DNA of 63,736 nucleotides, counting the filler, from Reclinomonas americana ATCC 50394 (Eukaryota), in the NCBI GenBank assembly GCA_048213135.1. It is 5 parts of 2 records of this genome, joined end to end, with 100 filler letters (N's around TTAATTAATTAA, not from the genome) between each part and the next. Parts side by side here need not be neighbours in the genome. Positions count along the whole stretch, not along the records: positions 1 to 27,606 come from PS015142.1; positions 27,707 to 43,745 come from PS015142.1; positions 43,846 to 60,054 come from PS015142.1; positions 60,155 to 61,895 come from PS015146.1; 1 more part is not named here. One strand, 5' to 3'. The notes below the pieces were generated by a model, which searched no databases, had not been told where the DNA came from, and saw only the letters and a program-made list of their open reading frames with translations. A program made the translations under genes and the position numbers. Positions 1-61,895 of the stretch are shown one piece after another; within the stretch, counting starts at the first letter, position 1; each line of letters opens with the position of its first letter.

Positions 1-2878
1 CTCTCTCTCTCTGTGTCAGTCTTCTCTTTCGATGTCTCTCACTGGAGAGAGCGCACAGCGCTCGAATGTCGACGAGCTGAAGCAGGCACGAGCAGAGCTT
101 GTCAAGCAACGCATGCGCGCCGACTTGGCAGAAAAGGAGCTCGAGCAAGTCGCCACGATTGTTGACAATGCCGCGTCACGAGTTGAGCTTTGCCTCACTC
201 TCTCTCTCTTACACTGTCTGCGCCCAACTGCTGATGCGTTGTGTCGTAGGCTGAGTTGGCAGTGGCGCGGGCGACTCGGGCGGAGGAGGACAGTCGGGCG
301 ATTCGAGCGCGACTGGCCGACTTGCAGGCGCAGCATGTGCAGTTGGAGGCAGAGAAGGCGACGCAGCAAGGTCGTGCTGATGGGCTGGAGAAGGAGCTGG
401 TGGCGGCTAAGAAGGCGGCACGGAGCGCCGAGAAGCGCATTGTGGAGTCGCGACAGCAGATCTCATCGCTGGAGCAGTTGCGCTTGTCGGGTGCCTGTCT
501 GCCTGATGGTGGTGCTGATGGTTGGCGTGCAGCGAGAACTCTGCGCTGCAGCGGACCATCAGGCAACTGCAGGAGGAGGCCACGGAGCAGAACAAGTCGT
601 TGGAGTCGCTGGGGAAGGAGGTCAAGTCGATGCAAGATGCGCGATTGAAGACCAAGGCAGTTGCGTCTGCTTCTGCGTCTCTCTCTGATGGTGGGAAGGG
701 GCCGGTTGCTCACGTTGAATGGAATCGATGGAGTGCAGTTGAAAAAGGACATGGAAGAGCTCGGTCGTCGACTGGCCACCGCGGAAGACACGCTGCAGAG
801 GAGAACCGCCGAGCACGAGGCCGAACTTGCCCGTCGTCAACGCGAATGGTATGGAAGCGCGCACTGCATGGCTTGTGTCTGTGTGTGCGTGTGCTGTGAA
901 TGTGACATTCCTTGCGTACGTGCAGGGAGACGCAAGAAGCAGAACTGCGCGGTACGCTCAAGCTCCTCAAGGGTGCGTGACGAGAAGTGCCTCCAGACAA
1001 CGCTGTTCGGATTGTGAAGATAACAGTGATTGGTGTGCGCAGAGGAAAAGGCTCGCACGGCAGTGATTGTCAACACCAAGGAGAAGCGGATCGAGGAGCT
1101 GGCAGGCGAGGTGGACTCGGCACGCTCCACTGTTGCGCCTGTTTCTTGCTCCACGCAACAATGAGTCTCGCTGGTTACCGACGGAATGTGTGTGTGTTTG
1201 CAGGATTCGGCCACCAGAAACCGCACGGTGCACTTGGAGCAGAAAGTGGCGCAGCTGCAGNNNNNNNNNNNNNNNNNNNNNNNNNNNNNNNNNNNNNNNN
1301 NNNNNNNNNNNNNNNNNNNNNNNNNNNNNNNNNNNNNNNNNNNNNNNNNNNNNNNNNNNNNNNNNNNNNNNNNNNNNNNNNNNNNNNNNNNNNNNNNNNN
1401 NNNNNNNNNNNNNNNNNNNNNNNNNNNNNNNNNNNNNNNNNNNNNNNNNNNNNNNNNNNNNNNNNNNNNNNNNNNNNNNNNNNNNNNNNNNNNNNNNNNN
1501 NNNNNNNNNNNNNNNNNNNNNNNNNNNNNNNNNNNNNNNNNNNNNNNNNNNNNNNNNNNNNNNNNNNNNNNNNNNNNNNNNNNNNNNNNNNNNNNNNNNN
1601 NNNNNNNNNNNNNNNNNNTCTCTCTCTCTGTGTCAGTCTTCTCTTTCGCTGTCTCTCACTGGAGAGAGCGCACAGCGCTCGAATGTCGACGAGCTGAAGC
1701 AGGCACGAGCAGAGCTTGTCAAGCAACGCATGCGCGCCGACTTGGCAGAAAAGGAGCTCGAGCAAGTCGCCACGATTGTTGACAATGCCGCGTCACGAGT
1801 TGAGCTTTGCCTCTCTCTCTCTCTTACACTGTCTGCGCCCAGCTGCTGATGCGTTGTGTCGTAGGCTGAGTTGGCAGTGGCGCGGGCGACTCGGGCGGAG
1901 GAGGACAGTCGGGCGATTCGAGCGCGACTGGCCGACTTGCAGGCGCAGCATGTGCAGTTGGAGGCAGAGAAGGCGACGCAGCAGGGTCGTGCTGATGGGC
2001 TGGAGAAGGAGCTGGTGGCGGCCAAGAAGGCGGCACGGAGCGCCGAGAAGCGCATTGTGGAGTCGCGACAGCAGATCTCATCGCTGGAGCAGTTGCGCTT
2101 GTCGGGTGCCTGTCTGCCTGGTGGTGGTGCTGATGGTTGGCGTGCAGTGAGAACTCTGCGCTGCAACGGACCATCAGGCAACTGCAGGAGGAGGCCACGG
2201 AGCAGAACAAGTCGTTGGAGTCGCTGGGGAAGGAGGTCAAGTCGATGCAAGATGCGAGATTGAAGACCAAGGCAGTTGCGTCTGCGTCTGCGTCTCTCTC
2301 TGATGGTGGAAAGGGGCCGGTTGCTCACGTTGAATGGAATCGATGGAGTGCAGTTGAAAAAGGACATGGAAGAGCTCGGTCGTCGACTGGCCACCGCGGA
2401 AGAGACGCTGCAGAGGAGAACCGCCGAGCACGAGGCCGAACTTGCCCGTCGTCAACGCGAATGGTATGGAAGCGCGCACTGCATGGCGTGTACACGTGCG
2501 CGCATGTGCGTGCTGTGAGTGTGACATTCCTTGCGTGCGTACAGGGAGACACTAGAAGCAGAACTGCGCGGTACGCTCAAGCTCCTCAAGGGTGCGTGAC
2601 TAGATGTGCCTCCAGACAATGCTGTTCGGATTGTGATGATGACAGTGATTGGTGTGCGCAGAGGAAAAGGCCCGCACGGCAGTGATTGTCAACACCAAGG
2701 AGAAGCGGATCGAGGAGCTGGCAGGCGAGGTGGACTCGGCACGCTCCACTGTTGCGCCTGTTTCTGCTCCACGCAACAATGAGTCTCGCTGGTTACCGAC
2801 GGAACGTGTGTGTGTTTGCAGGACTCGGCCACCAGAAACCGCACTGTGCACTTGGAGCAGAAAGTGGCGCAGCTGCAA
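1..2878 (+). repeat. Near-identical direct duplication of ~1.26 kb (1-1260 and 1619-2878)
   Basis: The two blocks are collinear with scattered substitutions. Both start in a (CT)n tract and end at ...GCGCAGCTGCA followed by an N-gap. Confidence 0.95.
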
Positions 2879-6055: not shown

Positions 6056-9000
6056 ATGGAGTTGCTCACGGGGGAGCAGCGGGCAGTGGTGCTCTCTGAG
6101 CATGACGCTGTGTTTGTCTCAGCGGGCCCCGGTGCTGGTGAGAGAGAGAGAGTTTTGTCTGTGAGTGCAAGAGTGTGTGAATGTGTGACAACTCGCAGGC
6201 AAGACGCGCACCATCACATATCGTGTGGCGCACTTGTTGGCTTCTACTCCTCGACAAGTATCTGCAAAGGCGGAGATCTACTGCATCACATTCACCAACA
6301 GAGCTGTGCGTGTGTGTCTCTTCTCCACTCTCTCTCTCTCTCTCATTGCTTGTGCTCATCTGAATGTTCGCAGGCGCGTGAGATGCAAGAACGACTGAGA
6401 CAAGTGTATCGATCGCACACGGACGACGAGCAGCGTGTGTATGTCGGAACGTTTCATCAGGTGTGTGTGAGAGAGAGAGATTGATTGATTGATGACGGTG
6501 CATTGATTGCTGTCACAGTTGGCGTTGTCGTTGCTGCGTGAATTTGGGGCCTCGGTGGGCCTGGTGCCGCGTCGATTCTCGCTCGTGACTGGTGAGTGCG
6601 GTGTCGTCGCCCTCGTGTGCATTGCCCTGCGCATGCGTCGCCGATGCGAGAATTGTTCATTGGTGCAGATGAGCGGCAGCGAGAGTGCGTGCAGAGTGTG
6701 CTTGAAAAGCACGGTCTTGCGGAGGAGGTTTCGTGCGCTGAAGGTACTCTTTCATTTCCTCCTGCCGCGTGGTGTGTGCTGTTGCTCATTACATCACTCC
6801 GCGCGACAGTGTTGCACGAAATCTCCTTGGCCAAAAACCACTTTCACGACCCGCCGTACATGCAGCGCTCCATGGACGCTCAGGTGAGCCTCATGGGTGA
6901 CCTGTACGCCGAATACGAGACATGGGTTGCGTTGTTCATGCACACTGTGCACATGCCTCCTGTTCCGTGACTCTGATCGACATTGGACGAGTGCAGAAGG
7001 ATGCCGAGTATGTGCTGGACTTTGATGACTTGCTGCTGCGCTGCATTCGCATGTTGCAGCGACACGAGCCACTGCGACAGGTCATCAGCGAGCGCATACA
7101 CCATCTCATCGTGGACGAGTTCCAGGACACCAACGCCATGCAGGTGGAGCTGGCATTTCTCTTGTGCCACGCACACCGTCGATTCATGGCTGTCGGCGAC
7201 CTCGACCAGAGTGTGTATCAGTGGCGGTGAGCAACCAAGCCTTCCTCCGTTCATTGCTGCATCACTCGCACACTCACTCGCACACCTCTGGCATGCGCAG
7301 GTTCGCGGATCCCACCAACGTGACCAAGATTGTCGCGCACTTTCCGCGCCTGCGTCACATGCCACTGAGTTACAACTTTCGCTGCACCGGCAGCATCCTC
7401 ACTGCATCGCGTCGCCTGGTCGAATCGTGCCCCGAACGGCGCAAGCAGACTCGCACACCGGGGCTGGCCTCCGTCATTGGTGAGTCGCTTCAGGTCACAT
7501 GATCACCGCCGTGGCTCACCTTTTTTCGTATGCAGTTGGTGGTGTCTCCTTTCGCACCACCAACGACGAGGGAGAAGCTGTGCGTGTGGTCCACTGCCTC
7601 ACGCTGCACGACGCGGCGTCGATGATCATTCGGAGTATTCAACGCACGCGACTGAGTGCAGGCGCCTCGCCGCCCGACTACGGCAATTTTGCCATCTTGT
7701 GTCGGTCTGTCGTCGTCCCTGTGTCGCGATCGCGCTCGCGTAGGAGACTGACCATGTGCGTCGCAGAATCAATGCCGACGCGGCAATGCTGGCCAACATG
7801 ATAGCCACCGAGGGTGGCATACCGGTGCAGACCACGTCATCCGGCTCCATTGCGTCGCACCCGCTGACAATCAAGCTCCTTTCGTTTCTGCGACTGCTTG
7901 TCGACTCGACCGATCTGTCGGCGTTTTGTATTGCGGTGCGTGCGGTACCGATGCTGGTCTCTTTCTCTCTCTATCTCCCTCCTTCGTGTGCTAACAAGGA
8001 AGCAGATCCACGTGCCGTGTCGCTTGCTGGTGGACGAGGAGGTCGAAGAGATTGTGGAGCTGGCCAAACAGTGCGAGCAGTCTGTTGTGGAGGCAGTGCG
8101 GACCGTGGCAGCGGGTCAGCTGGTGGCACAGTACCCTCCCGAGTCAGACGTGCATGCTGCATGCGTCCGACTGAGTGCGGCTCTCGAGGCGGCGCAGTCG
8201 GTGCTTAACCAGCAGGCGGCAGCGGCGCCGCCCACCGTGCACGATGCCCTGAAGTGCCTGGTGGTGCGCCTGATTTTTCTGTTGTACACCAGTGGCATGT
8301 ATTGATCGCGATCCGCGTGCAGGAGGTTCTCGAGGTGCCAGTTGACGACGACGACGACATTATTGGCGAGCTGCTCGACATTGCTCACGGATTCAAGCGG
8401 CCTGCCCTCGCGGTGAGCTCAGCACGACGGCTACAGGGGTAGTCGTCGACAATCGGTCGTCTGACACGCACATGTCGACAGGAAGGTGACGCAGGAGTGG
8501 TGTGCGTGGAAGAGTTCCTCAGCCACATGCAGACACTGAGCAGCGCCGATGTCTCGTGGTCCAAGTCGCGGGTGTGCGTGTCGGTGAGTGGTGGCGCATG
8601 TGATCACACTGTTGTTGCTGTGATTGAACGACTCACTGTCTGCCTGCCGCAGACCATCCACGCCGCCAAGGGTCTCGAGTGGCCACACGTCTTTGTGGCG
8701 GGTGTGGTGGAGACACGCATTCCGCACCGTCGGGCCGCCACAGCCGAGCAGATTGCCGAGGAGCGACGGCTGCTCTACGTGGCCATCACACGGGCGCGAC
8801 AATCGCTGCGCCTCCTCACACACGTGTTCCAGGAGGAGCCCGACGATGCAGACGATCGTGGCAATGTGTCGGGCGATCGAGGAGCGCGACTGCGGCGATC
8901 GCGGTTTCTCCGCGATCTGCCCTCCGACCGTGTGCACCAGTCGGTGACGCGAGCCTGGAAGCACTGGGCGAGCACTTGTCGGCACTCTCGCCGGGCACGG

Positions 9001-9402
9001 AGCAGGCGTGGTGGCCGCGCCGACGCGGGAGATCGCGCCCTCCTTCACGACATTGATTCTGCAGACGACGTCGACGACGATGATGCTGATGATGATGATG
9101 GCGGCGAGGGTGACAAGGAAGGTGACGATGATCGTGATCTGGAGGGTCTTGCGGTCGAAGACCCAGACGACGACGACGAGGAGGAGGAGCAGGAGGAGCA
9201 GGAGATCGAGGAGGCGGAAGATCTCCACATGCATGTTGGATTTGTGAGTGCACGAAGTGCACTGGCCATGCCGGCCGATGACGATTCGGCTGACGCATTC
9301 ATCACCGCCGCCGGCACCACACTGGGTCGACGGCGCAGCCGGCCCGAGGACACCGACACGCAACCCAACACAAAAAAGCAAAATAGTAGCCGTTACACTT
9401 GA
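6056..9402 (+). CDS. Superfamily 1A DNA helicase, UvrD/PcrA/Rep/Srs2 family, multi-exon, acidic C-terminal tail
   Basis: Spliced motifs in the correct order: AGPGAGKT (I), ITFTNRAAREMQERL (Ia), GTFHQ, LIVDEFQD (II), VGDLDQSVYQWR (III), NFRCTGSIL (IV), STIHAAKGLEW (V), EERRLLYVAITRAR (VI). Stop TGA at 9402. Confidence 0.95.
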
Positions 9403-9458: not shown

Positions 9459-11556
9459 ATGCGTACCACTGGTGTGCTTCTTGTCGTGGTGGCACTGGTG
9501 TGCCTCAGTGCACTGCATGCATCGGCGGCGTTGCAGGTGTGTGTGTGGCGCGCGTGTGTGTGTGCGTGTGAGCTCCAGAGAGATATGCGAGGGAAAACTG
9601 CTGGGATTGTTTCGCGCGCAATCTGAGGGGGAAGGCCCTCGCATGCACACAAAGATCTCACCGCGTGTGTGCATGCACACACACATACACAGCTGCCCGG
9701 TGTCACTATGCTGACACCGCAGAACTTCCACAAGTCAATGAAGGACAGTGCGTGGCTCGTCGGCTACACTGACGAGAAGGGCGAATGCACGGTGAGACAC
9801 ACACACGCGCTCTCTCTCCCACAGAGAGAGAAAGATGTGTGCTCACACTNNNNNNNNNNNNNNNNNNNNCGTGAGCAAACAGCGAGCGAATGTGGAGTCT
9901 CCGCGCGAGGGTGAAACGCAACGTGGCCATGGACTTGACCCACTCGAGCAGCGGGCCAGCCTCCAGGCGCACCATGGAGATGCCGAACATGGGCGAGTCG
10001 TGGCCACCCTGCCACCTGCGCGCACCACGTTGGTGAGCGCGAGAGCGCCACACACACACACGCGCGCACACACACATACACGAACCAGCGCACGTTGCCG
10101 ACGGGGAACACCTCGCTCTTGCAAAAGTCGGCATATGTGGTGCAATCAATGGCACCGAGCTTCACATTCTTGGGCAGCTTGGGCGCGACCTCAGGCAGCA
10201 GGCGGTTCACCACGCGGCAACCCTGTGTGGTTTACAGNNNNNNNNNNNNNNNNNNNNNNNNNNNNNNNNNNNNNNNNNNNNNNNNNNNNNNNNNNNNNNN
10301 NNNNNNNNNNNNNNNNNNNNNNNNNNNNNNNNNNNNNNNNNNNNNNNNNNNNNNNNNNNNNNNNNNNNNNNNNNNNNNNNNNNNNNNNNNNNNNNNNNNN
10401 NNNNNNNNNNNNNNNNNNNNNNNNNNNNNNNNNNNNNNNNNNNNNNNNNNNCCGAGTGAGGCACACACACACAGTCCGCCGGCCATGAAGTCGCGCGAGG
10501 AGATCAAGGCTCACAGCCTGTGGGAGTCCGGCCCGCTGACGCTGGTGCGCACCAGTGCCGCTCAGTACGGCTTCCTGACCAACAACAACCTGGCCAAGGT
10601 GGACGCTGGCATTGTTACGTGACAACAGTCTCCATCTATCTCTCTCTCTTCTTTGCTATGTTTCTCATGACAATGGACAACAGCAATTTGTGGCCTCGTA
10701 CGCTGCTGGTGCCACCCCGCGTCTGCAGAACTTTGCCTTCTACGACGGCGACCTCAATGAGATTGCCGCGGACTTGAACCGCACTGGTCTTGCGACTCTC
10801 GGTCAGACCTGCGCGTCTCCCGACGCTCTGATCATCAATTTCAACGGCGTTCACGTGTGGTGCGGTGGCCTGCAGGCGGTGCGTCGCATTTCCCTCGTTG
10901 TTGTGTCCTTCTCTCTCCGCCACTGAAAAACGACACAACAATAGACCACTCTGCGTCCGTGGCTGCTGGCCAACGCGTCGCCGCAGATTGCTCCCTTCTC
11001 GTCGGCCAACATTGCGCTGCTTAAGAATCTGGCTGGTGCGTATAAAATATGTGTGTGTACCACGTGACGATGCGCTCACTCACTCATCCTTTCGTGTCTC
11101 GCCACAGGCGCTCAGAACACCGGTCGCGTGTACGGCATTGTGGTGCCGGAGAACTTTGACGCCTCGGGACCTGCGTTGCGTTCCACCCACTGCTCTCGCG
11201 CAGTGCTGCCCGCGGTGCCATACTGACATGTACATGTTGTGTGAATGCACCCGCAGCATTCGCAAGGCCCTCGCTACGGCGCTGAAGGAGTTCCCCGACC
11301 GCTGCTTCATCTACGGCAAGGCCGCTGGTTTCCGCCAGGTTAATGCCACCACCCCTCTGCGCACAGTCTCTCCCGTGTGGCTGACTCGTCGCCTCTCCTG
11401 TGTGTCGTTCTGCAGTACTCGCACGCGTACGAGATGAGCGTCGATCAACCGTCGTACATTGCCGTCTCGCGCCCGCGCTGGCAGGAGCCGAACATCAAGA
11501 CCGTGCCGTCGGTCACCGCCAACGACTTCCTGGCCTTCCTCAAGGAGAACCCGTAG
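9459..11556 (+). CDS. Secreted thioredoxin-fold/PDI-like protein with CxxC = CTGC; two exons lie inverted at 9870-10237
   Basis: Signal peptide MRTTGVLLVVVALVCLSALHASAA, then VTMLTPQNFHKSMKDSAWLVGYTDEKGECT. This splices to minus-strand GCRVVNRLLPEVAPKLPKNVKLGAIDC and returns in phase to the plus strand at ~10474. Ends FLKENP-TAG with no KDEL. Confidence 0.75.
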
Positions 11557-39363: not shown

Positions 39364-39418
39364 GAGGCCACCACCACCACCACCACCACACATACAAGCG
39401 CACAGAGAGTGGGAGAGA

Positions 39419-48182: not shown

Positions 48183-48694
48183 GATATCGAATATACAAAA
48201 TGTCAGATTGTGAACTTCTGACTGAAGCCTGCATTCAACACTGTGCTAAGGCACTGCTTGTTCCGAGTCTTCGCCGCCACACAGCTGGTGCTGTGTTGTG
48301 GCAACGAAGATTATCCTTGCATCAACAAAAAAATTACATCCAAACAGCAACACATATGTACCAGCCAGAACGTACTCCACATGCAGCTCATAATCTTCGG
48401 GCAACTTTCAACTTCTGTGGGGTTGGAGGCTTCACGACCGGGGACCGCTGAGAATGCAATAAAGTCCTTTTCGATATTCCTGACAGTTTCTGAGCGGCTC
48501 GCGCGCGTTATTCACGACTCATTCAAACGCGTGAGTGTGAGCGAGAGAGAAGAGAAGGTGAGCGCGCACGCGTCTTGCCTCCTCCCTCTGTGTGCTCGCT
48601 CACTCGCTCTCTCTCTCTCTCTCTGCGTGTGCTCATTCTTCCGTTTTTGCATTTCTCCTCTCATTGCACACACAGAGAGTGAGAAAGAGTCCCA

Positions 48695-50881
48695 ATGAGC
48701 AAAGCTGCGCGCATCATTGGCGTCATCTGCCTGGTGCTCACTGCGGGCGCTGTTGCCTCGTGCATCCTCGCGCTCAAGTCGTGGCACTGGATGTTGCGTG
48801 CACAGTGATGCATTCCTCACTTGCGCACTCACTCTCTCTTACTCTTCTCTGCGTTGCTTTCTGCATGATCAGCAAAGCCGACTGCAAGCCTGCGTATTAC
48901 TACGAGATTGGCCTGCGCAATGGGTGCGTGTCACACACAACACACACAGAGAGAAAGAAGCAGACAGTGTGTGTGCGTGAGTGAAGAAACTCCGGCTTAA
49001 CACTGTGCATGTGTGTGTGTGCAGATGGTTGTGCACCAACTACGATGACTCTGTCAACGGCCCTGTGTGTTACACGTCGAGTCTGGGTGACTTGGATGTG
49101 AATCGCACGGTGACGTCGCCGTCCGACTTGTAAACTGCTCCCTCCTCTGTCTGCCATTTCTCACATATCGAAAAAATTGTTAGACTCTTGGTGTGGGTGC
49201 CGCTGGAACCGCCGTTATTTGCCTGCTTTTTATCCTGCTCATTGTGTATGTCGTGCGGCCGACGAGCAAGGCGTTGAAGTGGATTTGTGTGGTTTGTTTT
49301 TTTCTGTATTCGACTGTTTTCCATGTCGGGAAGAGCACTGATGTGTTGCGCTGCACACAGGTCACTGCATTTGTGGCCTTTGCGGTGAGTCTTTATGTGC
49401 GCGCCTTGTCCAAGTTCAACAGGTCGATCCTCACTGTGTTGCATGCGAGCAGCTCTGCTTGGCGGCTGTGGCGTACTTTACCAGCAAGAACAAGCTGGAA
49501 GCGTGCACGGTCGGCACCGGCAAGGCAGTTGCGCTCATTCACTCCCCCTTTCATTACTGCACACCTGTTGGCTTATCGCGTTGGTTGCACAGGCTTGGGA
49601 CTGGGGCTTCATTATCTTCTGGTGACGTGCTTTGCCTCGCGCGATCGACTTGATGCGTGCGCGCAACGACTGAATTGTGGTCCTTCTCCCCGTCTCGCAG
49701 GCTCGGCGTGTGGCTCCTGTTTGCAGTGGTCATTCTCCTTGTGGTGGCCACCCAATGTGGCGGTGGCGAACGGCGAACGGCGACCGGTTCCGGTACCGGT
49801 GGTCTCCTGAGTCCATCGGCGGTGAATTATTCGATCGACACCGATGTGGAAACCGGTGAGCAATACACGCCTGCCAACGACCGCACTCCGAAGAAGACGA
49901 CCCCGGCGCCGGCGCCGACGCCGACGCCTGGCCATGCCCCTGCTCCGCTGCCGGGCAGCCCCCAGCATGATCGCCACCCGGCACCCGCTACCGCTCCGCT
50001 GCCGGGCAGCCCCCAGCATGATCGCCACCCGGCACCAGCAGCGGTACCGACGCCTGCGCACGACCCCGACGTCATTTCGCCGGCGCGCCCGCCCCGCAAG
50101 GCCAACAACAAGGCCGGCGTCGACTACATGGACCTCGCCGGCCGCTTGCCGTGGCACAAGAATGCTGCCGATCAGGCGAAGCGCCAGCAGATGTTTACGC
50201 GCTTCGATCCGAATGGCAACGGCCATTTGTCGTACTCGGAACTCGAGGTACGCTACATTCTCGCTCTGGCGGCAGTGCGCGGAGGCCTGCCTCTCTCACA
50301 CTCTTCCTTGTTGTGCGCAGGCGGGCATGCGTGCATACTGGCAGCTGACGCAGGACCAGGCGGAGATCCTCAAGCCGGCCATCATGAGATCCTACAATGT
50401 CTCCAAGGATGCCGTCAAGGCGAAAGGCCCTGCGCGAGCGGGCGGGCTTAACCGCGACGACTACGTGCAGAAGCCCGAGTTCCGTTTGTTCCTGGTGGCG
50501 CTGCAGCAGAACCTCGAGCTGTACGACGTTGCGTTGGGCCGGCAAAAAGTATTCGGGCATGTTGCTGGTGGTGCTGACTGTGACTCACACAGATGTTTGA
50601 TCGTGTGGACTCGGGCGACGATGGTCGCATCGACTATGCCGAGTTCCAGCGCATGTTGCCGCAACTGAGCAAGTGGGGCTACAGCACCAGCGATCCTCGT
50701 GCCGCGTTTGCTGAGATTGATCGCAACGGCGGTGGAAGCATCATGTTCCAGGAGGTGAGTAGAAGAGTTGAGTGTGTATGTGAGAGTGTGCGTGTTCTCA
50801 TGTGGACAATGTGCATCGCAGTTTGCCACCTGGGCCACGGCCCAGCACCTCAGCGTGGACGACGATCCCTCAGCTGAATAA
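48695..50881 (+). CDS. Four-TM claudin/PMP22-like membrane domain fused to a calflagin/FCaBP-type EF-hand domain
   Basis: Phase-compatible splicing gives four hydrophobic helices, a Pro-rich linker, then RQQMFTRFDPNGNGHLSYSE...DDYVQKPEFRLFL...MFDRVDSGDDGRIDYAEF...LSKWG...DPRAAFAEIDRNGGGSIMFQEFATWA, collinear with trypanosome flagellar calcium-binding protein. Confidence 0.8.
49938..50037 (+). repeat. 45-nt in-frame tandem duplication (APLPGSPQHDRHPAP x2)
   Basis: GCTCCGCTGCCGGGCAGCCCCCAGCATGATCGCCACCCGGCACC occurs twice at 45-nt spacing. Confidence 0.9.
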
Positions 50882-51050: not shown

Positions 51051-53425
51051 TTACTCCTGCACCTCCTCGGGAGACAGGTCGAAGCGGCTGTCCTTGGGCA
51101 GCAGGCGCAGCACCAAGCCGTCGTCCTTTTCCAGCGGCGAACCCTGCACATCAGCGTGAGTGAGAGATGAGTGAGGCGGTGAAAAACGGGTGTGCGAGGA
51201 ACGCACATTGAGGTTGCACGAGAGGTGCACGCCGACGTAGAATCCGTGATCTGTGTCGACGACGCGTCATGAAATCAATTAGGCGAGAGTGAATGGACGA
51301 CGATGGTGTGTGCGTGCACTCACCGGCAGTGGACAGGTTGACCTCTGGCGTTAGGCACAAGAGCAATGGTGAGACGAAGAAGAAGAAGCAAAGATAAACC
51401 ATGACAACAGTGATTACGCACGAGGTCCGCAATCCTGCGTGGTATTCAAGTGAGTTACACAGCACGACGGCAATAAACAAGCAATGCACAGCATCAACAC
51501 TAACCTCCGTCGGCTGGCACACCTTGTACTCGGTGTTGTCCTGCTCGGGTGGACGAAACGAAGGTGAGTATGGATGGCGGAGCGCAAATAAATGGTGCAG
51601 CCCACGAACCTCGTTGTACCACACTTCGGTCGGCACATGCTCAAAGTGCAGGTAGGACGGTGGCAGCTGTTTACAGAGACGGTGAGTACCAGATGGTGCA
51701 TGCCGATCGCAGAGGGCGGACGACTCACATCCGGCACCACGTCGTGGTTGCTGTGCGCGTGCATGTGTGAGCACTGCCGCAAGAGGGAGACAGAAAGGGA
51801 GACTGTGCAAACGCAACTGCACGACACGCCACGAGCGACCCAGCGGGACCTCGCTGACAAAGAACGGGTAGAAGGAGTTGTCGGCGCCAACACGCGGAGC
51901 ACCGAACGTGTACAGCATGATGCGGTTCGGCTGTGGTGTGGTATGTACAAAAGAATCAGTGCACCACGTACATGTGCACACACACACACACACATTCGCA
52001 CGCACGTTAATGCCCATGCGGTAGGTCAGGTCGACGGCGCAAATGGTCGCCTGCGCACCGCCCAGCGAGTGTCTGCGCGAGCACAGGGGTTTTCTTCAGT
52101 GGCCGCTCACAGCACACCACAAACACAAGCACGGGGCACCCCGCACCCGACAATCATGATGTTGGCGTTGGGGTGCGTGGCATTGTGGCGATCGAAATCA
52201 ACCTTCCAGTCGTCGCGGCACACCTCGTACGAGCGCAGGAACCCCGCATGCACCGTCACACCCTGTTCACACACACACACACGGCCGTCATATGGAGAAG
52301 CGGAGAAGGAGACGCAGCACAGGCGGCACCGCACAAACCGTGTCCCACAGCTTCGTCTTGATGAACTGCACACAGCCAGCCACAAGGCGTCAGAGAAAAA
52401 CGCGACGCCGAGTGAAGGGATGAGAGGTGCACGCAACGTCAATGTTGGTGATCCAGTCAGCGACATCATCGGTGCCACTGATCGTCGTGTTGTGTTGTGA
52501 ATGCTGTGAGGGAGAAAGCACGAGAGCGCAATAACAACAACATGAACCCACGCACCGGAACACAATCATGATGGTGTTGCGAGAGGCGTCGTAGGCCACG
52601 AATCCAAAGCTGGAGTAGATTGCCGACTTTTTCTCAAACACCACCGCCTCGGAGACTCCAGGCACCGCCTTGCACGCCGTTCTGAGGGAACATAAGCGAG
52701 AGGTCAGCACTCAGTCTCTCTCTCCATACTGCAGAAGGCAAAGGAGCAGAAGAAGACGAAGAAGACGAAAGAAGAACGAGAAAAATAACAAGGAGGAGGA
52801 GGAGGAGTAGGAGGAGGAGGAGGAGGAGGAGGAGGGAAGAAGGAGAACAAGAACAAGAAAAACATCAAGAAGGAGGAGGAGTAGAAGAAGAAGGACGACG
52901 ACGACGACGAGGAGGAGGAGGAGGAGGAGGAGGTGGAGGAGAAGACGAAGAAGAAGAAGAAGAAGAAGAAGAACAAGGAGGAGGAGGAGAACTCTTCCTC
53001 AATCTCTCTCATGATCTCCTTTCATCCATTTCTCAGTCGGAACTCACCCCGACCAACTCTCAATCGTGTCCTTGTTGCACATGCAGCACGAGGAGAGGTA
53101 GGCGCCGATCTTGGCCTCGGCGGGGTTGTAGGCGTCAGCGAAAACATGACCTGCTTGCGCACAATTAGACAGTGAGACAGAGAACCTCGGAATCCCGCCA
53201 CCCACTCACCCACTCTTGCACTCTATCTCTCTCACGCACACACACACACACTGTGACACACACACGCACACTCTCTGCATGACACTCTCTCTCTCTCTCT
53301 CTCTCTCTTCTTTTCAGTCTTTGCCCTATCTCTCTCTCTTTCTTTTGTCACGCACCCTGCACCGCCACTGACATCATCAGTGTTGCCACAATCGCCACCA
53401 CAAGCACCACAACACGCGCAGTCAT
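51051..53425 (-). CDS. Secreted class 3 triacylglycerol lipase
   Basis: Signal peptide MTARVVVLVVAIVATLMMSVAVQG, then FGFVAYD...IMIVF, GTDDVADWITNI, VHAGFLRSY, GHSLGGA nucleophile elbow (split by an intron), YTFGAPRVG, RVVHNHDVVP and FEHVPTEVWY. Confidence 0.92.
52730..53010. repeat. (GAA/GGA/GAC)n purine-rich trinucleotide tract inside a lipase intron
   Basis: Imperfect GGA, GAA and GAC runs enlarge this intron to ~360 nt. Confidence 0.85.
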
Positions 53426-53522: not shown

Positions 53523-56500
53523 ATGGGCAGTGGTTGCAGCAAGACAGCCGCGTCCTCGGCAGTCGCTGCTGTCGCGCCTCTACCTCGTAATATGGTATAC
53601 AACAGAAAAATCGCTCATACAGTTGTCAAGAAAGCAGATGACTGTTACTCATCATTCTCGTGTAGTCGATGGAGGACGAGTCGTTTGTGCCTGTGGCGCC
53701 ACGTGCGACTGGCGCGAGCACGGCTGTGACGACAGTGGACATGCCGTTGGCGCCAAGCGAGCAGGCGGATGAGGCAGTGGTCCGTCTGTCGTGTGTGTCG
53801 CTTGTCGTTGGTCACCCCGCTGCTCACTCCATCTCATGTGCCATGCAGTCACCACTGGCACTGGCGGTGCCTGGGCCACCACCATCACGGCCGCGATCGG
53901 TGTCGTCTGCGGGACGGCGAGTGGTGGTCGCGGCCTCGGCCACTCACGATCCGTCGGGGACGACCGTGATGCGGAGGCCGCAGAGCTCGCGATCGGCTGC
54001 GCCACCGGCGTTGAATGGGGAGAAGACGAAGGGCGTGGGACTCAGTGCGCTCGATGCCAGCTCGGTGTCGTCGCTCAGTTGCGTCGTTTGGAGCGGACGA
54101 GACAAGTGTGGGCGGCCACGATCTTCTGATGCTGCTGGCTGTGTGTGGTGCAGACATTCCTGGGCTGGGCGAGTTGACGGGTCATGCGGCAGTGGAGGCG
54201 CCGGCATTGTTTCTGTATCCAACGTGGGAGGCCATTCGTCAGCACTGCCTGCAGCAGCTGCGAGGTTGCGTTTGTGTGCGGCAGGCACGAGAGCTTGGTT
54301 TGTCGTTCTTACGCCTGTGAGTGCACTTGCAGAGGCGCGACGATCGGTGCGTATCGTGGTTTTGCATGGAGATTCTGGTTGTGGCAAGGCCACCATTGTA
54401 CGCACGTTGGCGCGCGATGTGGCACACATTGGGGCGTCGCTGCAGCCGAGTGTTCCGCCAGCAGTCACTTTCTTCAGGTGCCAGCCGGCGTTGGAATTCC
54501 AGGTTTGACGGCCTACTGCGCAGGGTTTGCCACTGCGATGCCGTGTCTCATCTGGGCTGTCGCACAGATCGTCAATGAGTCGCTGCATCTGTTGGCGCTG
54601 TTGAATCCGTTCCGTGCACACCACTTGCGCGAGTCGACCGAGGACGCCATTCGTGATGCCATTCACGCGCACTTGTATGGACCGTCGGAGCAAGGTAGCG
54701 ACGCGTTCGCTGCCAGGCACTGCTGTGTGGATACTCATCCTTTGTGTGTGTGCATGTGACATGCAGAGATTGTGCTGACCGTCCTTGGTGTGTCCAAGGT
54801 GGCGGACTTGGCCGGCATCCTTCCGCGCACCTTGTCGTCGACCATGAATTCGCACACCGTCACTATCTTTGTCACCACGTCGGCGGTGGAGGAACTGCGA
54901 GAGGATCTGCGCAGCATTGACTTTGCCGCCACCGTGTCCATGCTCGAGGTGCCGTCATTGTTAACTGATGGCGATCGCGAAGCGTATGTGGCGCACCAGG
55001 AGACTGTCGGTGGACTGTCATTAGCGACGCCCGAGCAGCGGCAGGTGTTGTGCGACCTGCAAGTGGATGCCGAGTCGGATCTGCAGAGTTCCACGCAGAG
55101 CACCATCTCCAGTGTGGCGCCGCTCCCCGACGATCAGCCGAGTGACGTGCGACTGGCTGTGCGCTTTGTGACGGCCTTCTCCGCCATTAGCCGATGCAAA
55201 CAGATGCCAAAACCACGCGTGTTGACCCGCCTATTGTCACCGTGGACCACCTTCGGCTTTGATTCGTGCTTTGTTCGGTTGGAATCGGCCGAGCGTCGCA
55301 TTCTGGTGGCGTTGGCCGCCGCCGCTGGCTTGCCACTGCTCGGCGTGCGCAGTTTGCATGCTCTTGCATCGCACACCCCGGATCCCACCGAGCCTCTCGC
55401 GCTACCGGCGGTCGATTACTTGACCTGCTTGAAGCGGCTGGTGTGTGTGTTGATGTTCATGTACGCATGCACATGTCTCGTCGCTGACACTGCAGTGGTG
55501 GTGTGCGCAGGCTGTCGAGCGATTGGTGGAGTCGCATGTGCTTCCGCGCGATGAGTACCCGGTAGGTTCCGATGAGGAGGATGCCGCACTATTGCGGCTA
55601 GCCGACGAAGAGAGTGATGAGGTAGGTGAATGGTGCGCAGCAGGTCGAGAACGAGACAACTGATTCGTGTGCAACGGCTGCAGCTCGACACCGACCACGA
55701 CGCCGACAGCAATGTCGGAGATTTTGTGCCAGCTGAGCGGCGATCGCTGGTGGGATTCGCCTTGCATCCCATGTTGGTGGACTATGTGCAGCGACGATTT
55801 GTGGAGGCGTTTGATATAGTTGCGCACCGGTGATGTCTCTCGGGCAGTTGCGAAGCGCGCTGCTGCTTACTCGCATGAGCAGTCTCGATGTGAACTGGCA
55901 ATGCTGATGATCGAGTGGGCTGTGCGGCTGGTTGAAGGCGGACTGGAGACGCACGCACGTCGTCGTGCGCTCTTTGCTCGTCATCTTGACGGATTGTGGC
56001 GAATCTTGGCGGGTTCGCACCACCCTTTCTACCTACGGATCATCGCTGGCACTCATCGTCACATTTGCGCAGAGCTGGATCCGCGATCCATGTCGAGTGA
56101 ACGGTGGGCGCGCGCCATGTGGACGTTCCGGCTGGTGTCGGCGTGGAATCTGGAGAGACATCGTCCGCTGGCGCTGTGCTTCCGGCAGGTATGTGTTCGA
56201 ATCCTCGACCCCGACGACGAAGACGGACAGGCTCTCGTGCCGAGACGTAGCAATGTGATGGCTGACGAGGTGCGCTGTGTGTGAACAAGCGTGTAGCAAT
56301 TCTCTATTTTGAAGGGCTTGTCAATTGACGTGTCACGTTGATGATCGCAGCTGGAGGACCGACGGTGGTGGCTGTTGCGCGAGTGGGGATTGCTGGCGCG
56401 GAATCTGGGACTGAATGAGGAGGCGCGGCGAGTGCTGGCCAACTGTGTGCGAATTCAAGTGGGTGCGCTGGGCAACCGTGATGTGGAAACATTGAGAAGT

Positions 56501-59500
56501 AGGCATTTCCTGGCGGGTTCACTCGCCGCCTGTGGGCATCTGCCAGAGGCACTTGAGGTGCGTAGCGTGGCGTTGTGCACGTGCTGGTAGCAACACACCA
56601 TAGCCTGCTCACGCGTACGGTCGTTTTCCGATGCGCGATGCAGGAGTATAAGCAGTGCATGGCGGGTCGGGAACAGGTTCTCGGGGAGAAGCATGAAGAC
56701 ACGGTGGCGACGTTGCACTGCATCGCCACGACGCTACAGAAACTGCGGCGATCCCCCGAGGCTGAGGCGCTCTTCCGTCGCTGCCTGAGCTCGTGTGTGG
56801 AACGATTTGGTGAGCGCCACCCGGACTCACTCATCACAATGTCGAATCTGGCGGAGACTCTGTGGGCGCAATCCAAGTTTCGTTGCACACGTGCGCTGGC
56901 ACAGACGCGCATATCAGCTTGGTTGTTTCTCACACGCCGCTGCGCAGATTTGAGGAGGCCGAACCGGTGCTGCGCAAGGCAGTTGCACTGCAGTCGGAAG
57001 TGCTGGGAGGTGAGCGCACGCTGAGAGTTTGCAGTCTCCTTATTGGTGCTCACTCGCTCGGTCCTCGTGTCAGCCACGCACCCGCAAACTCTCCGCACCA
57101 AGCACAACTTTGCCTCCACACTGCAGGCGTTGAGCATGTTCATCGAGGCCGCTGTCGTGTATCAGGACTGCTTCGAGGCGCAGCAGCAACTGTACGCGCC
57201 AGACCACACCAGTGTGCTGTTGACACGTCACAATCTCGCAGCTGTGCTGGCGGAACTCGGTTCGTCTCTTCTTGGTGATCATCCATGCAGGCTGGGTGAC
57301 TGTTGCCAACACTCTTGCTTTCTACGCAGGCCGCTACAGTGAGGCCATTGTGCTGCAGTGCCAGTCGCTCAAGACGCTGGTGGACAAGAACGGCCCCGAC
57401 GACCCATTCACCGTGCGCTGTCGTGTTAGCTTGGCCAACACGTTTCTGGCCAACAACGAGCCGGCGTCGGCGGAGACACACTTGCGGTGAGTGCATCTTT
57501 CACCACACGTCGATGTCGGGGTGATATGTGGAGCAGAAAAGTGATTCTCTTTTTTTATTGTCGTTGCAGAGAGACTCTTGCTTCACAAATACGGACGCTG
57601 GGTCGGACCCACGAGGAGACATTGCACACCATGGAGTCATTAGCGCTGGCGTTGGAGGCACAAGGCCGACACGTGGAAGTCGAGCAGACGGAACGGGAGG
57701 TCCTCCAGATGCGGTGCGTAAAGCAGTGCGTAGGTTACGGTGATGTGAAGCTGACCCCACCAACCTGCAGACGGGACGCTCTCGGACCGGAGCATGTGCT
57801 CACGTTGCAGACCATGTTCACCTATGCCCTGGTGCTCAACGAGTTGGGTCGACACGATGAGGCAGTGGAGCAGCTCAAGGTGTTGTTGTGCACGAGCGCT
57901 GGACACGGTCTCGGCATGTTTATCTTACCATGTTGATGGTGGCAGGAATGCTTGGACTCGCGGAGAAAGCTGCACGGCCCGTCGCACGACCTGACCACCA
58001 TGACGGAAAATGCACTCAACGCACTCTACGTGCAACTCGGACGCGGCCCCGGTGCCGTGGAGAGTCTGACGGCGGCGTACAACGAGCGGCAACAGAGATT
58101 AGGCGAAGACCACCCAGACACTGTACAGGCGCTGGGGTGAGAGCAGCATGATTTTGCGTCTCTCTCTCTGCATCGCGTGATGACTGAGTCTCTCTTCTGC
58201 AGCGATCTGTGCCGCGTGCTCTGCATTCAGAAAAAGTTCAAGGAGGTGCGACCGCTGTTGGAGACGTACGCACGACAGGCGACGCGAGTGTATGGCGACG
58301 ATGCCGCGCAAACGCTCGGAGCCCTACACTCGCTCGGTGTCACGCAGCATTCGCTGGCCGAGCCGCAGGCCGCTGAGCGGAATCTGCGCAAATGTCTCGA
58401 GGTGACGCCAACTGGTTGATTTCTTTTGATGTCGCTCGTGATGCTTAGACGTTTGTCTTCTTGCTTCTTTTGCAGGCGCGTCTCCGCCTGCTCCCACCGC
58501 GCGATCCAAGTCTGCTCGACACGCAGTTTGCACTGGCCTCTGTGCTGCAGGCGCTGAACAAGCTGAAGGAGGCCGAGACGCTGCATCGTCAGTGCCACGA
58601 AGGTATTCTGCTCACACACACACACACAACATGCACCGTGCCCTGCTGAGCCCGCTCGCTCATGTGTGCCTGCGCCGATAGCGCGAAGCGAGACTCTGGG
58701 CGACGCTCATCCGGATACACTCGCCGTACTGCACCAGCTGGCCGTCAACTTGGATGCACAAGGTCGGTTCGCGGAGGTCGAAACACTGGAGCGACAACTC
58801 TTGAAACACCGTTGCGAGCTGCTGGGACCCAAGGTCTGTGCAGTTGTGGCATCAGTTGATCGCTCCTGCTTTCTCACACATGCGGCGCCACAGCATCCGC
58901 ACACGCTGACGACCATGCATTTCCTGGCGCTCACACTGCGCTCACTCGGGCGCAACCAAGAGGCCATTGAGTTGGCCGAGGCGTGTCTGGTTGCGCGCCT
59001 GGAGCTGGTGGCGGAAGGCATACTTATTGAGGAGGACACCATGGAAACGCGATCGCTTCTGGCGCAAATGTACGAGAGCACGGCCAACTATGGCCGTGCA
59101 CGAGATCTCTATCAGGTGCGCATTTTGTGCTTCTCGTGTGCGCGTGATCGCGTCGTCAGTCTCCAACATGGTTGTGTGCGCACACACAGGTGCTGCTGCA
59201 ACACGCCGAAAAGACAGGTCCGACCGAGGGTGCCGAGGTGCTGCGCATTCGGTCCACGTTGGCTCGCCTGCACGGCCTGTTGGGTGCGCTGGCCGAGTGT
59301 GAGGCGCAGCAGCTCGCGTGCGTGGCCATTATGGAGCGCGAGATGGGCAAGGATCATCCCACGACCCTGAGCACCATGTGCGACCTGGCCACGACTCGGC
59401 GCAAGCTGGGGCGACCGTCCGAGGCCCGTGTGCTGCTGGAAGACCTCGTCGTGCGACGTATTCGAGTGCTCGGCGAAAGCAATCGCCTCACGCTGCAGGC

Positions 59501-60054
59501 GCAGCACGAGCTCGGCCTGTGCATCTTTGCGGAGGGCAAGCACGCCGAGGTCAGCCACGCGAATCGTCTTCTTTGATGTGTGTGTGTGTGTGTGTGTGTG
59601 TGTCACTGGTCACTCACTGCGTTGGCAGGCGGAGACCGTGCTGCGTCAAGTGCTGACACAGCGCAAGCGCCAGTTCCAGCCAACCGATCCCGATGTGTTG
59701 GCCTCACGACACGCACTCTCCGAGTGCTTGCTCATCACGGGTCGACTGGGCGAGGGCGTGCGTGAGTGCCGTGAATGTGTCGAAGACCGCATCCGAATTC
59801 TCGGACCAACGTTGCGTGCTTGCCATTCGTGATCGCCATTCTTCTGCGTGCTGCCGGTTGCTCACGAGCTTGTGCCATGGCGTAGACATCCGGATGCAGT
59901 GGAGACGCAGCTGGTGCTCATGCAGATTCTGCAAAAGCAGGGCCGACACCGTGAGGTCGAGCGTGTCGGTCGCGAACTGCTCGACAAGAATCCGCAAGGC
60001 GAACAAGGCAGGCTGCTCTGTCTGTTTGTCTGCGTGCGCGCAACACCACTAACT
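53523..60054 (+). CDS. N-acylated P-loop (STAND-like) protein with long kinesin-light-chain-type TPR array, NPHP3-like architecture (3' incomplete)
   Basis: Starts MGSGCSK. Walker A-like VVLHGDSGCGKAT. Many ~42-aa repeats of type LGxxHPDTL (LGEKHEDTV, FGERHPDSL, LGEDHPDTV, LGDAHPDTL, MGKDHPTTL) from ~56400 to 60000. Confidence 0.8.
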
Positions 60055-60154
60055 NNNNNNNNNNNNNNNNNNNNNNNNNNNNNNNNNNNNNNNNNNNNTT
60101 AATTAATTAANNNNNNNNNNNNNNNNNNNNNNNNNNNNNNNNNNNNNNNNNNNN

Positions 60155-61895
60155 TCTTCAACATGGCACGAGCGCACCACCGGCGAACGAGTGCAGGTGT
60201 TTGTCGACGGAGTGCTCTGGCTATCGACTGTGCCGAATCCGTGTCCGTGGCCGACGACGTACACCGACACCGTGGTGTGTACGGCCACCGGGCTGCAACC
60301 GAACACAAACTACACCTTCAGTGTGGCGCTGGCCAATGACGACGACTTTGGGCGTCAGCAGGTGGTCCTGGGTGCGTGCACATGTGCTGTCCTCTTCTAT
60401 TCGAATCGCAGCGCGCTGATGCGGGCTGTGCAGGGAAAACTCTCCTCGTGCACACGGCAGCGATGCGGAATGCCGGTAACCCGACTTACACGACGGCTCC
60501 AGTGTTGCGTACGGTGGATAGAAGAATGGAGGAGCGAGGACACTGAGGGCAACAGAGAAACAGTGTTTCTACGAATTTCTCTTTCCATTGCTGATAGTCG
60601 TGCCCGTATTGCAGGTTTGTACAAGCCAACGGCCCACCCAATGCAGCAGAAGGGTGAGCCTCCTGCTCTAATAATTCTGTTGCCGGTGCGCTGACTGCCT
60701 CTCTGATCAGACCCAATCCACGTTTTCAAGTCATTCAGAAGCGCGCATCTAGCGGACGGACGCGTCTCATCGATTGGCATCCCACGACATCGCCTTGCTT
60801 GTGGTTAGTCACCGTGTGCTTGCCAGTTCAGCGCTCATTCATTCACCCTTGATTTGCACTCCACAGGACCTCGGCAACTCCGGTGTTGTGCACTCTGGCC
60901 GGCCTCGAGGCGGCCACCGGCTACTCCGATCTCTTCGTGTTTGTCGTCACTGACGCGAACTCGGGAGACTTGACGCCAGCGGCGGAAACTATTGTCACTC
61001 GTTGCGTACCGCGTTCTGCGTGTACCTGCCGTCTCGCGCGCGTTGCCGTGTCGCACTCATTTGTGTTCTGTGCGCGCACAGAGTTCCATGACTTGGAGCT
61101 GTCGCTGACCGCCATGGGGCCGGCGGTTGGTGTTGGTGGACCGGTGACCGTGCAGGCCACAATGGTGGATGTTGATCGCACTCGGCCGTTGGTACGAGAC
61201 GTGCCGGTGGTGTTCACGTGGACATGCTCGTTCGGGGGCACACCCTGTGGGGCATCCGTCGTTTCGACGGCGCGAACTGCGGTGCTGACAATTGCCACCG
61301 GCTTCAGCGCCCCGGGAATGTTACGTAGCGAGTTCACCCAGAGTGTTTGACGGTCGGAAACGTGGACTTCTCATGTCTCTTCCTACAGCTATTCATTTGG
61401 GTGCACAGTGACTCGAGGAACTCGCAACCGGCACGCGACCGCAGACGTGACAGTCCAGGGAGAAGAATCTGTCGCATTCAGAGTGGTTTGTCGATGTTCA
61501 CTTGCTTGTCCTCACATGGTGGTGTTGTTCTTCATCATGGTGTTGCGTGCACAGGTCTCGGCGTCACCCTTGGCTGTCGGTGCTTCAACTGCACGGCTGA
61601 ACCCACTGCGCTCCATTTCAATCACCGCCACTGCATTCGGCACTACCGCAGATACCAGATTTTCGTGGCGAGCGTATGAGCAAGGTATCAGTGATTCAGC
61701 GAGACGTGTACGCAGTCGTGTAACTGACTACACCAAATCATATCTGTGTGTCGAATGCAGGATCGACGCAGGATCTGCGGCTCGGCTTGCCTGATTTCGA
61801 TTTTCTTCTGTCGGCTCCCGGACAGCCGCCTGCTGTGCGCATCAAGGAGGGCGTCTTTGAGGGCAACAAGAAGTACGTGTTTGAGTTGTTGGCAC
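60155..61895 (+). CDS. Internal fragment of an extracellular FN3 + REJ-like domain protein (polycystin-1-like)
   Basis: FN3 signature TGLQPNTNYTFSVAL and a second LAGLEAATGY. REJ-like blocks VVFTWTC...C, TRFSW and VRIKEGVFEGNKKYVFELLA. Confidence 0.6.

Follow-up and report, generated by a model that had tools for sequence, protein, structure and literature searches.

In a stretch of DNA from Reclinomonas americana ATCC 50394, introns appear to begin with either of two discrete forms of 5′ splice site (donor). The stretch, hereafter the window, is 63,736 bases long and consists of five parts (of the records PS015142.1, PS015146.1 etc.) joined with 100-letter fillers. The main form would be G/GT-NN-G-T, most often G/GTGCGT, where the slash marks the exon–intron junction; the second would be N/GTTGCG-Y, in which N is rarely G, together with the rare variants GTTGAG, GTTACG and GTTTCG. 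We suggest that one seven-base element, G-(G or T)-T-G-C-G-T, underlies both forms and that in the second it is placed one base further into the intron, so that G+1 of the intron stands in place of G-1 of the exon, and the exon base at -1 takes on the weak, A/T-leaning and G-poor preferences of canonical position -2. About 18–22% of the introns modelled in the window would be of this shifted form. We give a probability of about one half to this two-form, two-register account as the best explanation as a whole.

A second donor word in the modelled introns

Two gene models were applied to the window. The blind model, a self-trained generalised hidden Markov gene model without a donor matrix, worked only on GT..AG pairs separated by 35–400 nucleotides (nt), scored by 3-periodic coding potential, a matrix for acceptors and a curve for intron length; its coding score was seeded from Pfam-matched frames, and the coding, acceptor and length terms were learnt by self-training. 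The second pass scored donors by an intronic mixture at +3 to +9 only, leaving exon positions unused. A donor is called shifted-type if it reads GTT-N-H-G (T at +3, G at +6 and non-G at +5) and canonical if it reads GT-NN-G; counts called duplicate-removed omit the second copy of a duplicated gene (1619–2878). The blind model returned 18 genes with 178 introns of median length 72 nt, and the most frequent donor hexamer among these introns was GTTGCG (25), followed by GTGCGT (22) and GTGAGT (8). Since GTTGCG makes up 61 of the 3,765 sense-strand GT sites, 2.9 such donors would be expected, and the 25 seen amount to an 8.6-fold excess. On both strands of the window the hexamer occurs 93 times, against 68.05 ± 7.89 in dinucleotide-preserving shuffles, none of 100 of which reached 93; inside gene spans it stands 61 times on the sense and 22 times on the antisense strand. 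The blind model uses it at 22 of 58 sense sites, and words one letter away are hardly used at all (GTGGCG 1/50, GTCGCG 0/20, GTAGCG 1/6, GTTGCA 1/28, GTTGCC 0/21 and GTTGCT 1/20). This second donor class has specific requirements for T at +3 and G at +6. An unsupervised three-component mixture over +3 to +9 of 142 blind donors yielded a T-G-C-G-Y component of weight 0.21 and a G-C-G-T component of weight 0.43. The second pass returned 173 introns, with 35 GTTGCG and 34 GTGCGT donors. Sorted by type, shifted donors account for 24 of the 136 blind introns of 45–130 nt (20 of these 24 being GTTGCG) and for 36 of 167 second-pass introns (duplicate-removed).

A first-pass annotation of the window, made by following reading frames and motifs, had listed 28 GTTGCG donors. 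At all 28 positions the hexamer is present on the strand and with the -1 base that it reported, and, as it had said, G stands at -1 only at 6926 and 54265, the other 26 being non-G. The blind model recovers 16 of the 28 and the second pass 23; neither recovers 9922(-) and 35867(-), both with introns that extend into N gaps, or 38391, 48793 and 59811, all three in stretches with little coding signal. Outside that list the models place 12 more GTTGCG donors, three of them in the duplicate copy 1619–2878. The models also show visible errors, for example in the isoleucyl-tRNA synthetase (IleRS) and kinesin-like genes. Two further forms proposed at the same time as donors, T/GTTACG at 10614 and A/GTTTCG at 56877, were both chosen by the blind model, which also uses A/GTTTCG at 18642 and A/GTTGAG at 182 and 1799. 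The observation of the donor class is confirmed as far as sequence analysis reaches.

Homologous proteins back four of the junctions, 36826(-), 34279(-), 35867(-) and 6926, in a protein-guided spliced alignment that admits GT–AG introns only and leaves donors unscored. In IleRS this alignment gives introns at 37025, 36826, 36663, 36440, 36259, 36017 and 34279. The joined sequence NGLVLA/ADGKKMSK at 36826(-), which the first-pass annotation had used to pin the junction, matches the homologue without an indel, and 34279(-) lies in a spliced alignment to two homologues, likewise without an indel. The junction claimed at 35867(-) is consistent across an N gap: the exon ends in ...EREP plus one base and the next starts with VHF, and the homologue runs contiguously through ...EES-VHF. 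The kinesin-like gene is too divergent for homology to pin its junctions.

Further support comes from a gene present twice in the window, at 1–1260 and 1619–2878, the copies being 96.9% identical (copy 2 against 2–1259). They differ in 42 alignment columns, and 28 of these fall in the six predicted introns, whose share of the length is 33.5% (p = 1e-5). Internal indels between the copies number three (2, 4 and 1 nt); they lie in introns 182–249, 849–925 and 1132–1203, and each would break the frame; the first nine bases of every intron are free of differences. Across the window, frames join at every modelled intron, GT–AG introns being the only ones permitted.

Judged by sequence features, the shifted-type introns appear to be ordinary major-type GT–AG introns of ~70 nt with an unusual 5′ word, because their lengths, acceptors and YTNAY motifs match those of canonical introns and because they lack a U12 word, extended similarity and self-pairing. 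Median lengths are 70 nt (shifted) and 69 nt (canonical), without difference, and the acceptor profiles are alike. A YTNAY motif lies within the last 30 nt in 25 of 34 introns of the shifted type (median distance to the 3′ end 18 nt) and in 65 of 89 canonical ones (19 nt). GT and AG ends with a restored homologous frame, as in U2-type introns, were found without indel at 36826 and 34279, and with three of four homologues at 6926. A U12-type origin was rejected, as 20 of the 24 blind shifted donors are GTTGCG and not RTATCC and a branch motif like TCCTTRAY occurs in 0 of 34; we take the U12-type words to be RTATCCTT (5′) and TCCTTRAY (branch). Introner-like copying was rejected as well, the 34 introns sharing only chance or microsatellite matches of 12–17 nt and no column past +7 exceeding 46%. 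So was pairing of the donor with an intron-internal complement, CGCAAC, a 5-mer complement of the donor being present in 1 of 34 shifted and 6 of 89 canonical introns. As an observation apart, modelled acceptors read R-C-A-G with C at -3 in 93–97%, and the homology-guided IleRS introns end in CAG in five of seven cases and in TAG in two; the strength of the C preference is uncertain, because the acceptor matrix is self-trained and two of seven IleRS introns end in TAG.

Flanking positions and the register of recognition

The two forms differ at the last exon base. About three quarters of GTGCG donors had been said to carry G at -1, which agrees with 19 of 28 in the blind model; G is also common there before GTGAG (13/17), GTACG (7/8) and GTTCG (6/8). 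The 25 blind GTTGCG donors have A in nine, T in seven, C in seven and G in two. In the second pass (duplicate-removed) G stands at -1 in 2 of 36 shifted against 86 of 106 canonical donors (Fisher p = 2e-16), a contrast that is not imposed by the models, because neither uses the exon base. From the bases that precede GT inside exons at the same codon positions, 8.9 of 36 would be expected and 2 are seen (binomial p = 0.003), so that G is depleted before shifted donors and not merely unselected. The -1 bases of shifted donors (A13 T13 C8 G2) resemble those at canonical -2 (A34 T31 C24 G17; chi-square p = 0.43) and differ from those at canonical -1 (p = 6e-15).

The same sliding by one is seen downstream. 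Shifted +7 (T 67–72%, C 22–29%) resembles canonical +6 (T 61–63%, C 20–22%), and in the blind set the downstream columns, scored on the canonical ones, give a log-likelihood of -122.5 when slid by one, -141.3 unslid and -133.1 under a uniform model. For position -1 alone the values are -57.3 in the same register, -31.1 shifted and -34.3 neutral. CA/G, the triplet that would lie opposite the conserved C-U-G of U1 positions 9–11 in a +1 register, occurs in 7 of 36 shifted donors against 7.3% CA before GT inside exons (p = 0.014; blind set 5/27, p = 0.04). The rare forms GTTGAG, GTTACG and GTTTCG mirror canonical GTGAG, GTACG and GTTCG, and each follows a non-G base. Written out, canonical G/G-T-G-C-G-T and second /G-T-T-G-C-G-T share one heptamer and differ only at its second position, where the latter has T instead of G; cleavage in the modelled junctions falls before the first GT of the element. 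There is also a hint of compensation, in that a non-G base at -1 is more often tolerated where a canonical donor has the best intronic word: G stands there in 30 of 42 donors reading GTGCG, against 56 of 64 of the remaining canonical ones (p = 0.046). As a separate observation, T at +3 is accepted in canonical donors, an uncommon feature in eukaryotes, for example at 36017(-), 40640, 42006, 51609(-), 52338(-) and 56013; in the second pass all 12 such donors have G at -1 (GTTCG 8/8, GTTTG 4/4).

Each donor (-3 to +9) was folded against the universal 5′ end of U1, its sequence taken from PMC4856993. Canonical donors pair with a mean of -6.1 kcal/mol, 97 of 106 in the canonical register. The best duplex of a shifted donor lies in the +1 register in 18 of 36 cases, only by way of three pairs (mean -0.84 kcal/mol). 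Such pairing to standard U1 would by itself be too weak to account for recognition, since it amounts to about -1 kcal/mol in any register, and the mechanism would need a diverged or second U1, or recognition independent of U1. The proposal of two registers made in the first-pass annotation therefore stands in part: the flanks follow the canonical profile slid by one, but pairing to standard U1 is negligible whatever the register. The shifted class is the tighter one (G at +4 in 88–92% and C at +5 in 96–97%, against 63–71% G at canonical +3 and 52–55% C at +4), as expected if a weaker register demands the best match elsewhere, and it points to G-C, not A-A. A modelled, hypothetical U1 with positions 5–6 complementary to G-C would pair with shifted donors at -6.6 kcal/mol in the +1 register with one mismatch. 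Rfam found no match of any kind, and hence no small nuclear RNA gene, in the window at the gathering score; at E <= 1 it gave only seven weak matches resembling microRNAs (miRNA) or internal ribosome entry sites (IRES), at low-complexity places.

As to mechanism, we infer that one early recognition step would bind both forms, in the normal and in the +1-shifted register, and that later catalytic steps would fix cleavage at GU. The recognising RNA would be complementary to GCG, because G-C-G at +4 to +6 is near-invariant and universal U1 pairs negligibly; it could be a U1 whose 5′ end has diverged at positions 5–6, or an additional U1 variant. That two-register recognition is routine here, with about one-fifth of introns out of step, by way of a re-written U1 5′ end or a second U1 matched to GUUGCGU, is a tentative proposition, and we would sooner bet against this specific version than for it.

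Several points weigh against the two-register account. Its data come from a single window with ~58 kb of non-N sequence; both models were restricted to GT–AG introns; and an 'other' donor class, which includes model errors, comprises 41 of 136 blind and 25 of 167 second-pass introns. Shifted donors pair with universal U1 at a mean of only -0.84 (second pass) or -1.0 kcal/mol (blind set), and non-donor GT sites pair more strongly (-2.5 kcal/mol). The hypothetical U1 brings no gain in telling donors from decoys (area under the curve in the blind set 0.663, standard U1 0.670). Over exon positions -3 to -1 jointly, a uniform model does as well as the shifted one (-99.8 and -99.4), so that the exon-side support rests mainly on -1 and on small numbers, and the blind set (25%) does not repeat an apparent preference for C at -2 that the second pass shows (42%). 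Finally, every junction is predicted from DNA sequence, which also favours the view that frame continuity has misplaced the junctions and that GTTGCG is an exonic or intronic word near the true donors. Reads of four runs (X16, X22, X12 and X17) aligned to 27707–43745 gave no joints, and we draw no conclusion from them; in each run the 40–52 reads with a partial fit lay at microsatellite-like places or on a conserved 47-nt piece of IleRS. Misplacement would also account for the 12 of 28 listed donors missed by the blind model, five of them by both models, and would suit the visible errors in such genes as IleRS and the kinesin-like one. We nevertheless hold it to be quite improbable, given the 8.6-fold excess of GTTGCG at blind donors, its near-unused one-letter neighbours, its 61 sense against 22 antisense occurrences in gene spans, the indel-free homology across 36826 and 34279, and the frame-breaking indels between gene copies inside introns 182–249 and 1132–1203.

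The remaining alternatives accept the donors and differ in how they would be read. A dedicated second U1 variant, fully complementary to GUUGCGU, might serve the shifted class with the main U1 serving G/GUGCGU, so that there would be two RNAs and not two registers. The class is discrete and near-invariant (20 of 24 blind shifted donors), its neighbours are barely used (GTGGCG 1/50, GTTGCA 1/28) and standard U1 hardly pairs with it, all as this proposal would have it; but one recogniser explains more simply why the flanks follow the canonical profile slid by one, GTTGAG, GTTACG and GTTTCG for their part parallel canonical GTGAG, GTACG and GTTCG, and we think a separate RNA rather unlikely. Unlikely, too, is a reading without any register shift, in which GTTGCG is a second allowed word in the normal register, read mainly by U6, U5, Prp8 or proteins, and the lack of G at -1 reflects absent selection and sampling. 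The poor pairing of standard U1 in every register and the tie between uniform and shifted models at -3 to -1 suit it; the shortfall of G at -1 below neutral expectation (2 against 8.9 of 36), the enrichment of CA/G, downstream columns that fit the canonical ones only if slid, and a motif one letter off the canonical heptamer after sliding do not. Large expansions of U12-type introns, as reportedly in Physarum, and introner families, which occur in some algae, likewise give a discrete and abundant second intron class, but the 5′ word GTTGCG, the want of a TCCTTRAY-like motif in 34 introns, 3′ ends and lengths as in canonical introns and the lack of extended similarity among the 34 make either origin here barely credible. 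A bulged U at +2 or +3, with G+1 paired as usual and G-1 still opposite U1 C9, is a register known at some human sites (68 predicted bulge +2/+3 sites in Table 3 of PMC4856993) and also predicts downstream columns that slide by one. It predicts, however, that G is favoured at -1, whereas G stands there in 2 of 36 shifted donors against 81% of canonical ones (86/106), and the -1 log-likelihood is -57.3 in the same register against -31.1 shifted; a bulge with kept -1 pairing was rejected on the -1 counts, and we regard this explanation as very improbable.

Donors, introns and genes of the window

The shifted-type donors and introns are given below by coordinates and strand. 'Both models' denotes the blind model and the second pass, and 'listed' marks the 28 donors of the first-pass annotation.

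182–249, +: intron, shifted-type A/GTTGAG; both models; 2-nt inter-copy indel inside
477–532, +: intron, A/GTTGCG; both models; listed; donor kept in copy 2 at 2092
660–738, +: intron, A/GTTGCG; both models; listed; donor kept in copy 2 at 2275
1132–1203, +: intron, T/GTTGCG; both models; listed; 1-nt inter-copy indel inside
1799–2821, +: gene copy 2 with the same four shifted-type donors at 1799, 2092, 2275 and 2751; both models
6926–6996, +: intron, G/GTTGCG, UvrD-like helicase; both models; listed; three of four homologues in spliced alignment
9917–9922, -: candidate donor C/GTTGCG, intron enters N gap 9850–9869; motif only, neither model; listed; upstream coding score positive in a single frame
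10614–10683, +: intron, shifted-type T/GTTACG; both models; named in the first-pass annotation
11175–11256, +: intron, C/GTTGCG; both models; listed
14607–14672, -: intron, A/GTTGCG; both models; not listed
15380–15455, -: intron, T/GTTGCG; both models; not listed
15790–15996, -: intron, T/GTTGCG; both models; 207 nt long, so acceptor doubtful
18642–18714, +: intron, shifted-type A/GTTTCG; both models
19936–20010, -: intron, T/GTTGCG; second pass only
24740–24808, -: intron, C/GTTGCG; second pass only
25869–25933, -: intron, T/GTTGCG, kinesin-like gene; both models; listed
26002–26067, -: intron, T/GTTGCG; second pass only; listed; top acceptor 66 nt downstream
27003–27073, -: intron, T/GTTGCG; donor in both models; listed; acceptor at 26796 in the blind model and 27003 in the second pass
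27880–27941, +: intron, C/GTTGCG; both models
29089–29162, +: intron, A/GTTGCG; second pass only; listed; upstream coding score +10.7 in one frame
29268–29323, +: intron, T/GTTGCG; second pass only; listed
30601–30667, +: intron, A/GTTGCG, COG4; both models; listed
32329–32399, +: intron, T/GTTGCG, COG4; both models; listed
33618–33687, +: intron, A/GTTGCG; second pass only; listed
34203–34279, -: intron, C/GTTGCG, IleRS; both models; listed; indel-free alignment to two homologues
35862–35867, -: donor A/GTTGCG, IleRS, intron enters N gap 35283–35800; listed; homologue alignment across the gap
36748–36826, -: intron, C/GTTGCG, IleRS; both models; listed; indel-free homologue alignment
38391–38396, +: candidate donor T/GTTGCG; motif only, neither model; listed; surrounding coding signal weak, good acceptor 58 nt downstream; possibly an intron of an untranslated region (UTR)
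38962–39031, +: intron, T/GTTGCG; second pass only
39199–39266, +: intron, T/GTTGCG; second pass only; listed; upstream coding score +12.3
48793–48872, +: candidate intron, T/GTTGCG; read by eye, neither model; listed
49528–49592, +: intron, A/GTTGCG; second pass only; listed
50528–50592, +: intron, C/GTTGCG, EF-hand/FCaBP-like gene; both models; listed; the next exon starts where the EF-hand Pfam match starts
51751–51817, -: intron, A/GTTGCG, class-3 lipase; both models; listed
52366–52437, -: intron, C/GTTGCG; both models
54078–54153, +: intron, A/GTTGCG, AAA_16/TPR gene; both models; listed
54265–54332, +: intron, G/GTTGCG, the second with G at -1; both models; listed
55819–55882, +: intron, A/GTTGCG; both models
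56877–56947, +: intron, shifted-type A/GTTTCG; both models; named in the first-pass annotation
59811–59816, +: candidate donor C/GTTGCG; motif only, neither model; listed; candidate acceptors 89–115 nt downstream
60504–60509, +: candidate donor T/GTTGCG; second pass, with a doubtful 363-nt intron; listed; weak coding signal
61001–61081, +: intron, C/GTTGCG; both models; listed

The candidate at 48793 looks like a first intron behind ATG 48696: by eye, an open frame runs from that ATG, reading through the donor leads to TGA after six codons, and acceptor 48872 keeps the frame. Just upstream of the same ATG, 48540–48690 is an imperfect palindrome rich in (GA)n/(CT)n, which draws weak miRNA- or IRES-like Rfam matches far under the gathering score and is probably low complexity in a promoter or 5′ UTR.

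The window has 20 N gaps and, outside them, 58.7% G+C. It is gene-dense, and its genes are broken up by numerous short introns. The genes below were identified by Pfam matches on stop-to-stop frames.

~6.0–9.4 kb, +: UvrD-like helicase
~22–27 kb, -: kinesin-like gene
30.7–33.1 kb, +: COG4
33.9–37.2 kb, -: IleRS, C-terminal half
39.4–41.6 kb, +: Sec24
47.7 kb: endonuclease-VII domain
49.6–50.9 kb: EF-hand/FCaBP-like protein
51.1–52.1 kb, -: class-3 lipase
53.7–59.6 kb: large gene with AAA_16 and TPR_10/12

The duplicated copies 1–1260 and 1619–2878, with an N gap between them, are the 5′ part of a coiled-coil-like gene; either a tandem duplication of recent date or the tandem assembly of a haplotype could account for them. 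The UvrD/PcrA-like helicase (6056–9402, +) contains at least a dozen spliceosomal introns; its closest relatives among 1.84 billion representatives are 46–53% identical and ~715–770 amino acids long, and the gene may be of bacterial type and have resided in a eukaryote for a long time. For an IleRS exon the closest relatives are 36–45% identical, and a metagenome scan gave a top match of 37% identity; searches for relatives of kinesin and COG4 exons gave no matches. In IleRS (33900–37259, -) tblastn finds the C-terminal half only, from about homologue residue 500 on. The N-terminal half would be expected past the gap 37260–37752, yet the next gene begins shortly after, and this suggests an assembly mis-join or a missing piece. 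The AAA_16/NACHT-like gene with TPR_10 and TPR_12 (53669–61895, +) is very large, with ~28 modelled exons and an NLR-like architecture. An unexplained 629-amino-acid open reading frame gave uninformative protein-atlas scores of 0.75.

Comparison with known splice-site systems

Few features of eukaryotic gene expression are as conserved as the U1 5′ end and the recognition of donors in one register; to our knowledge, registers other than the canonical one have been described only for a small minority of human sites. Shifted-register human 5′ splice sites are said to have been originally reported by Roca and Krainer. A GT-NN-G-Y donor consensus is found in GC-rich, short-intron eukaryotes such as basidiomycete fungi, which share with the main class of the window G/GT-NN-G-T, introns of ~70 nt and YTNAY; we know of no second, shifted donor class described for eukaryotes of this type.

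All validated non-canonical human registers together amount to ~1.5% of 201,541 5′ splice sites in the part of PMC4856993 used for this comparison. In the human shifted register as described there, intron G+1 replaces exon G-1 opposite U1 C9 and all pairs move by one (PMC4856993). Cleavage at GU, position -1 opposite U10 and a preference for CA/G would be shared with the window. The human register is rare, whereas the window class would make up ~18–22% of introns; and the human sites use an A-rich word that matches universal U1, whereas GTTGCG pairs with it at only about -1 kcal/mol. The human bulge +2/+3 and asymmetric-loop registers have an extra U after GU and downstream pairing moved by one base, as here, but they keep the pairing of G at -1, which is present at only 2 of 36 donors here (PMC4856993). 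Tunicates have a large share of introns off the standard 5′ signal, and in the part of PMC13326754 drawn on here a shifted U1 register is raised as a possibility only; they abandon the GT/AG rule, whereas the window keeps GT–AG and differs only in the register of the flanking signal. In full-text literature (supplements and most subscription journals being outside the scope), GTTGCG or GUUGCG combined with splice or intron terms retrieved primers and unrelated uses and no such donor class.

What appears to be new here, as read from the modelled introns, is that the human shifted-register logic would serve a mainstream class of donors, defined by an invariant word of their own; this class probably needs a non-standard recognising RNA. 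If the account is true, it would show that, genome-wide, the register in which a donor is recognised can be separated from the point at which it is cut, and the organism would offer a natural system for studying how U1, U6 and U5 hand over an out-of-step site. Gene finders with a single donor matrix would miss about one-fifth of the introns here or misplace them by frame. Under the more tentative version with a re-written or second U1, R. americana would be the first organism with the shifted register as a mainstream, selectable class, where human sites use it rarely; it might also be the first in which the 5′ end of U1 has been re-written.

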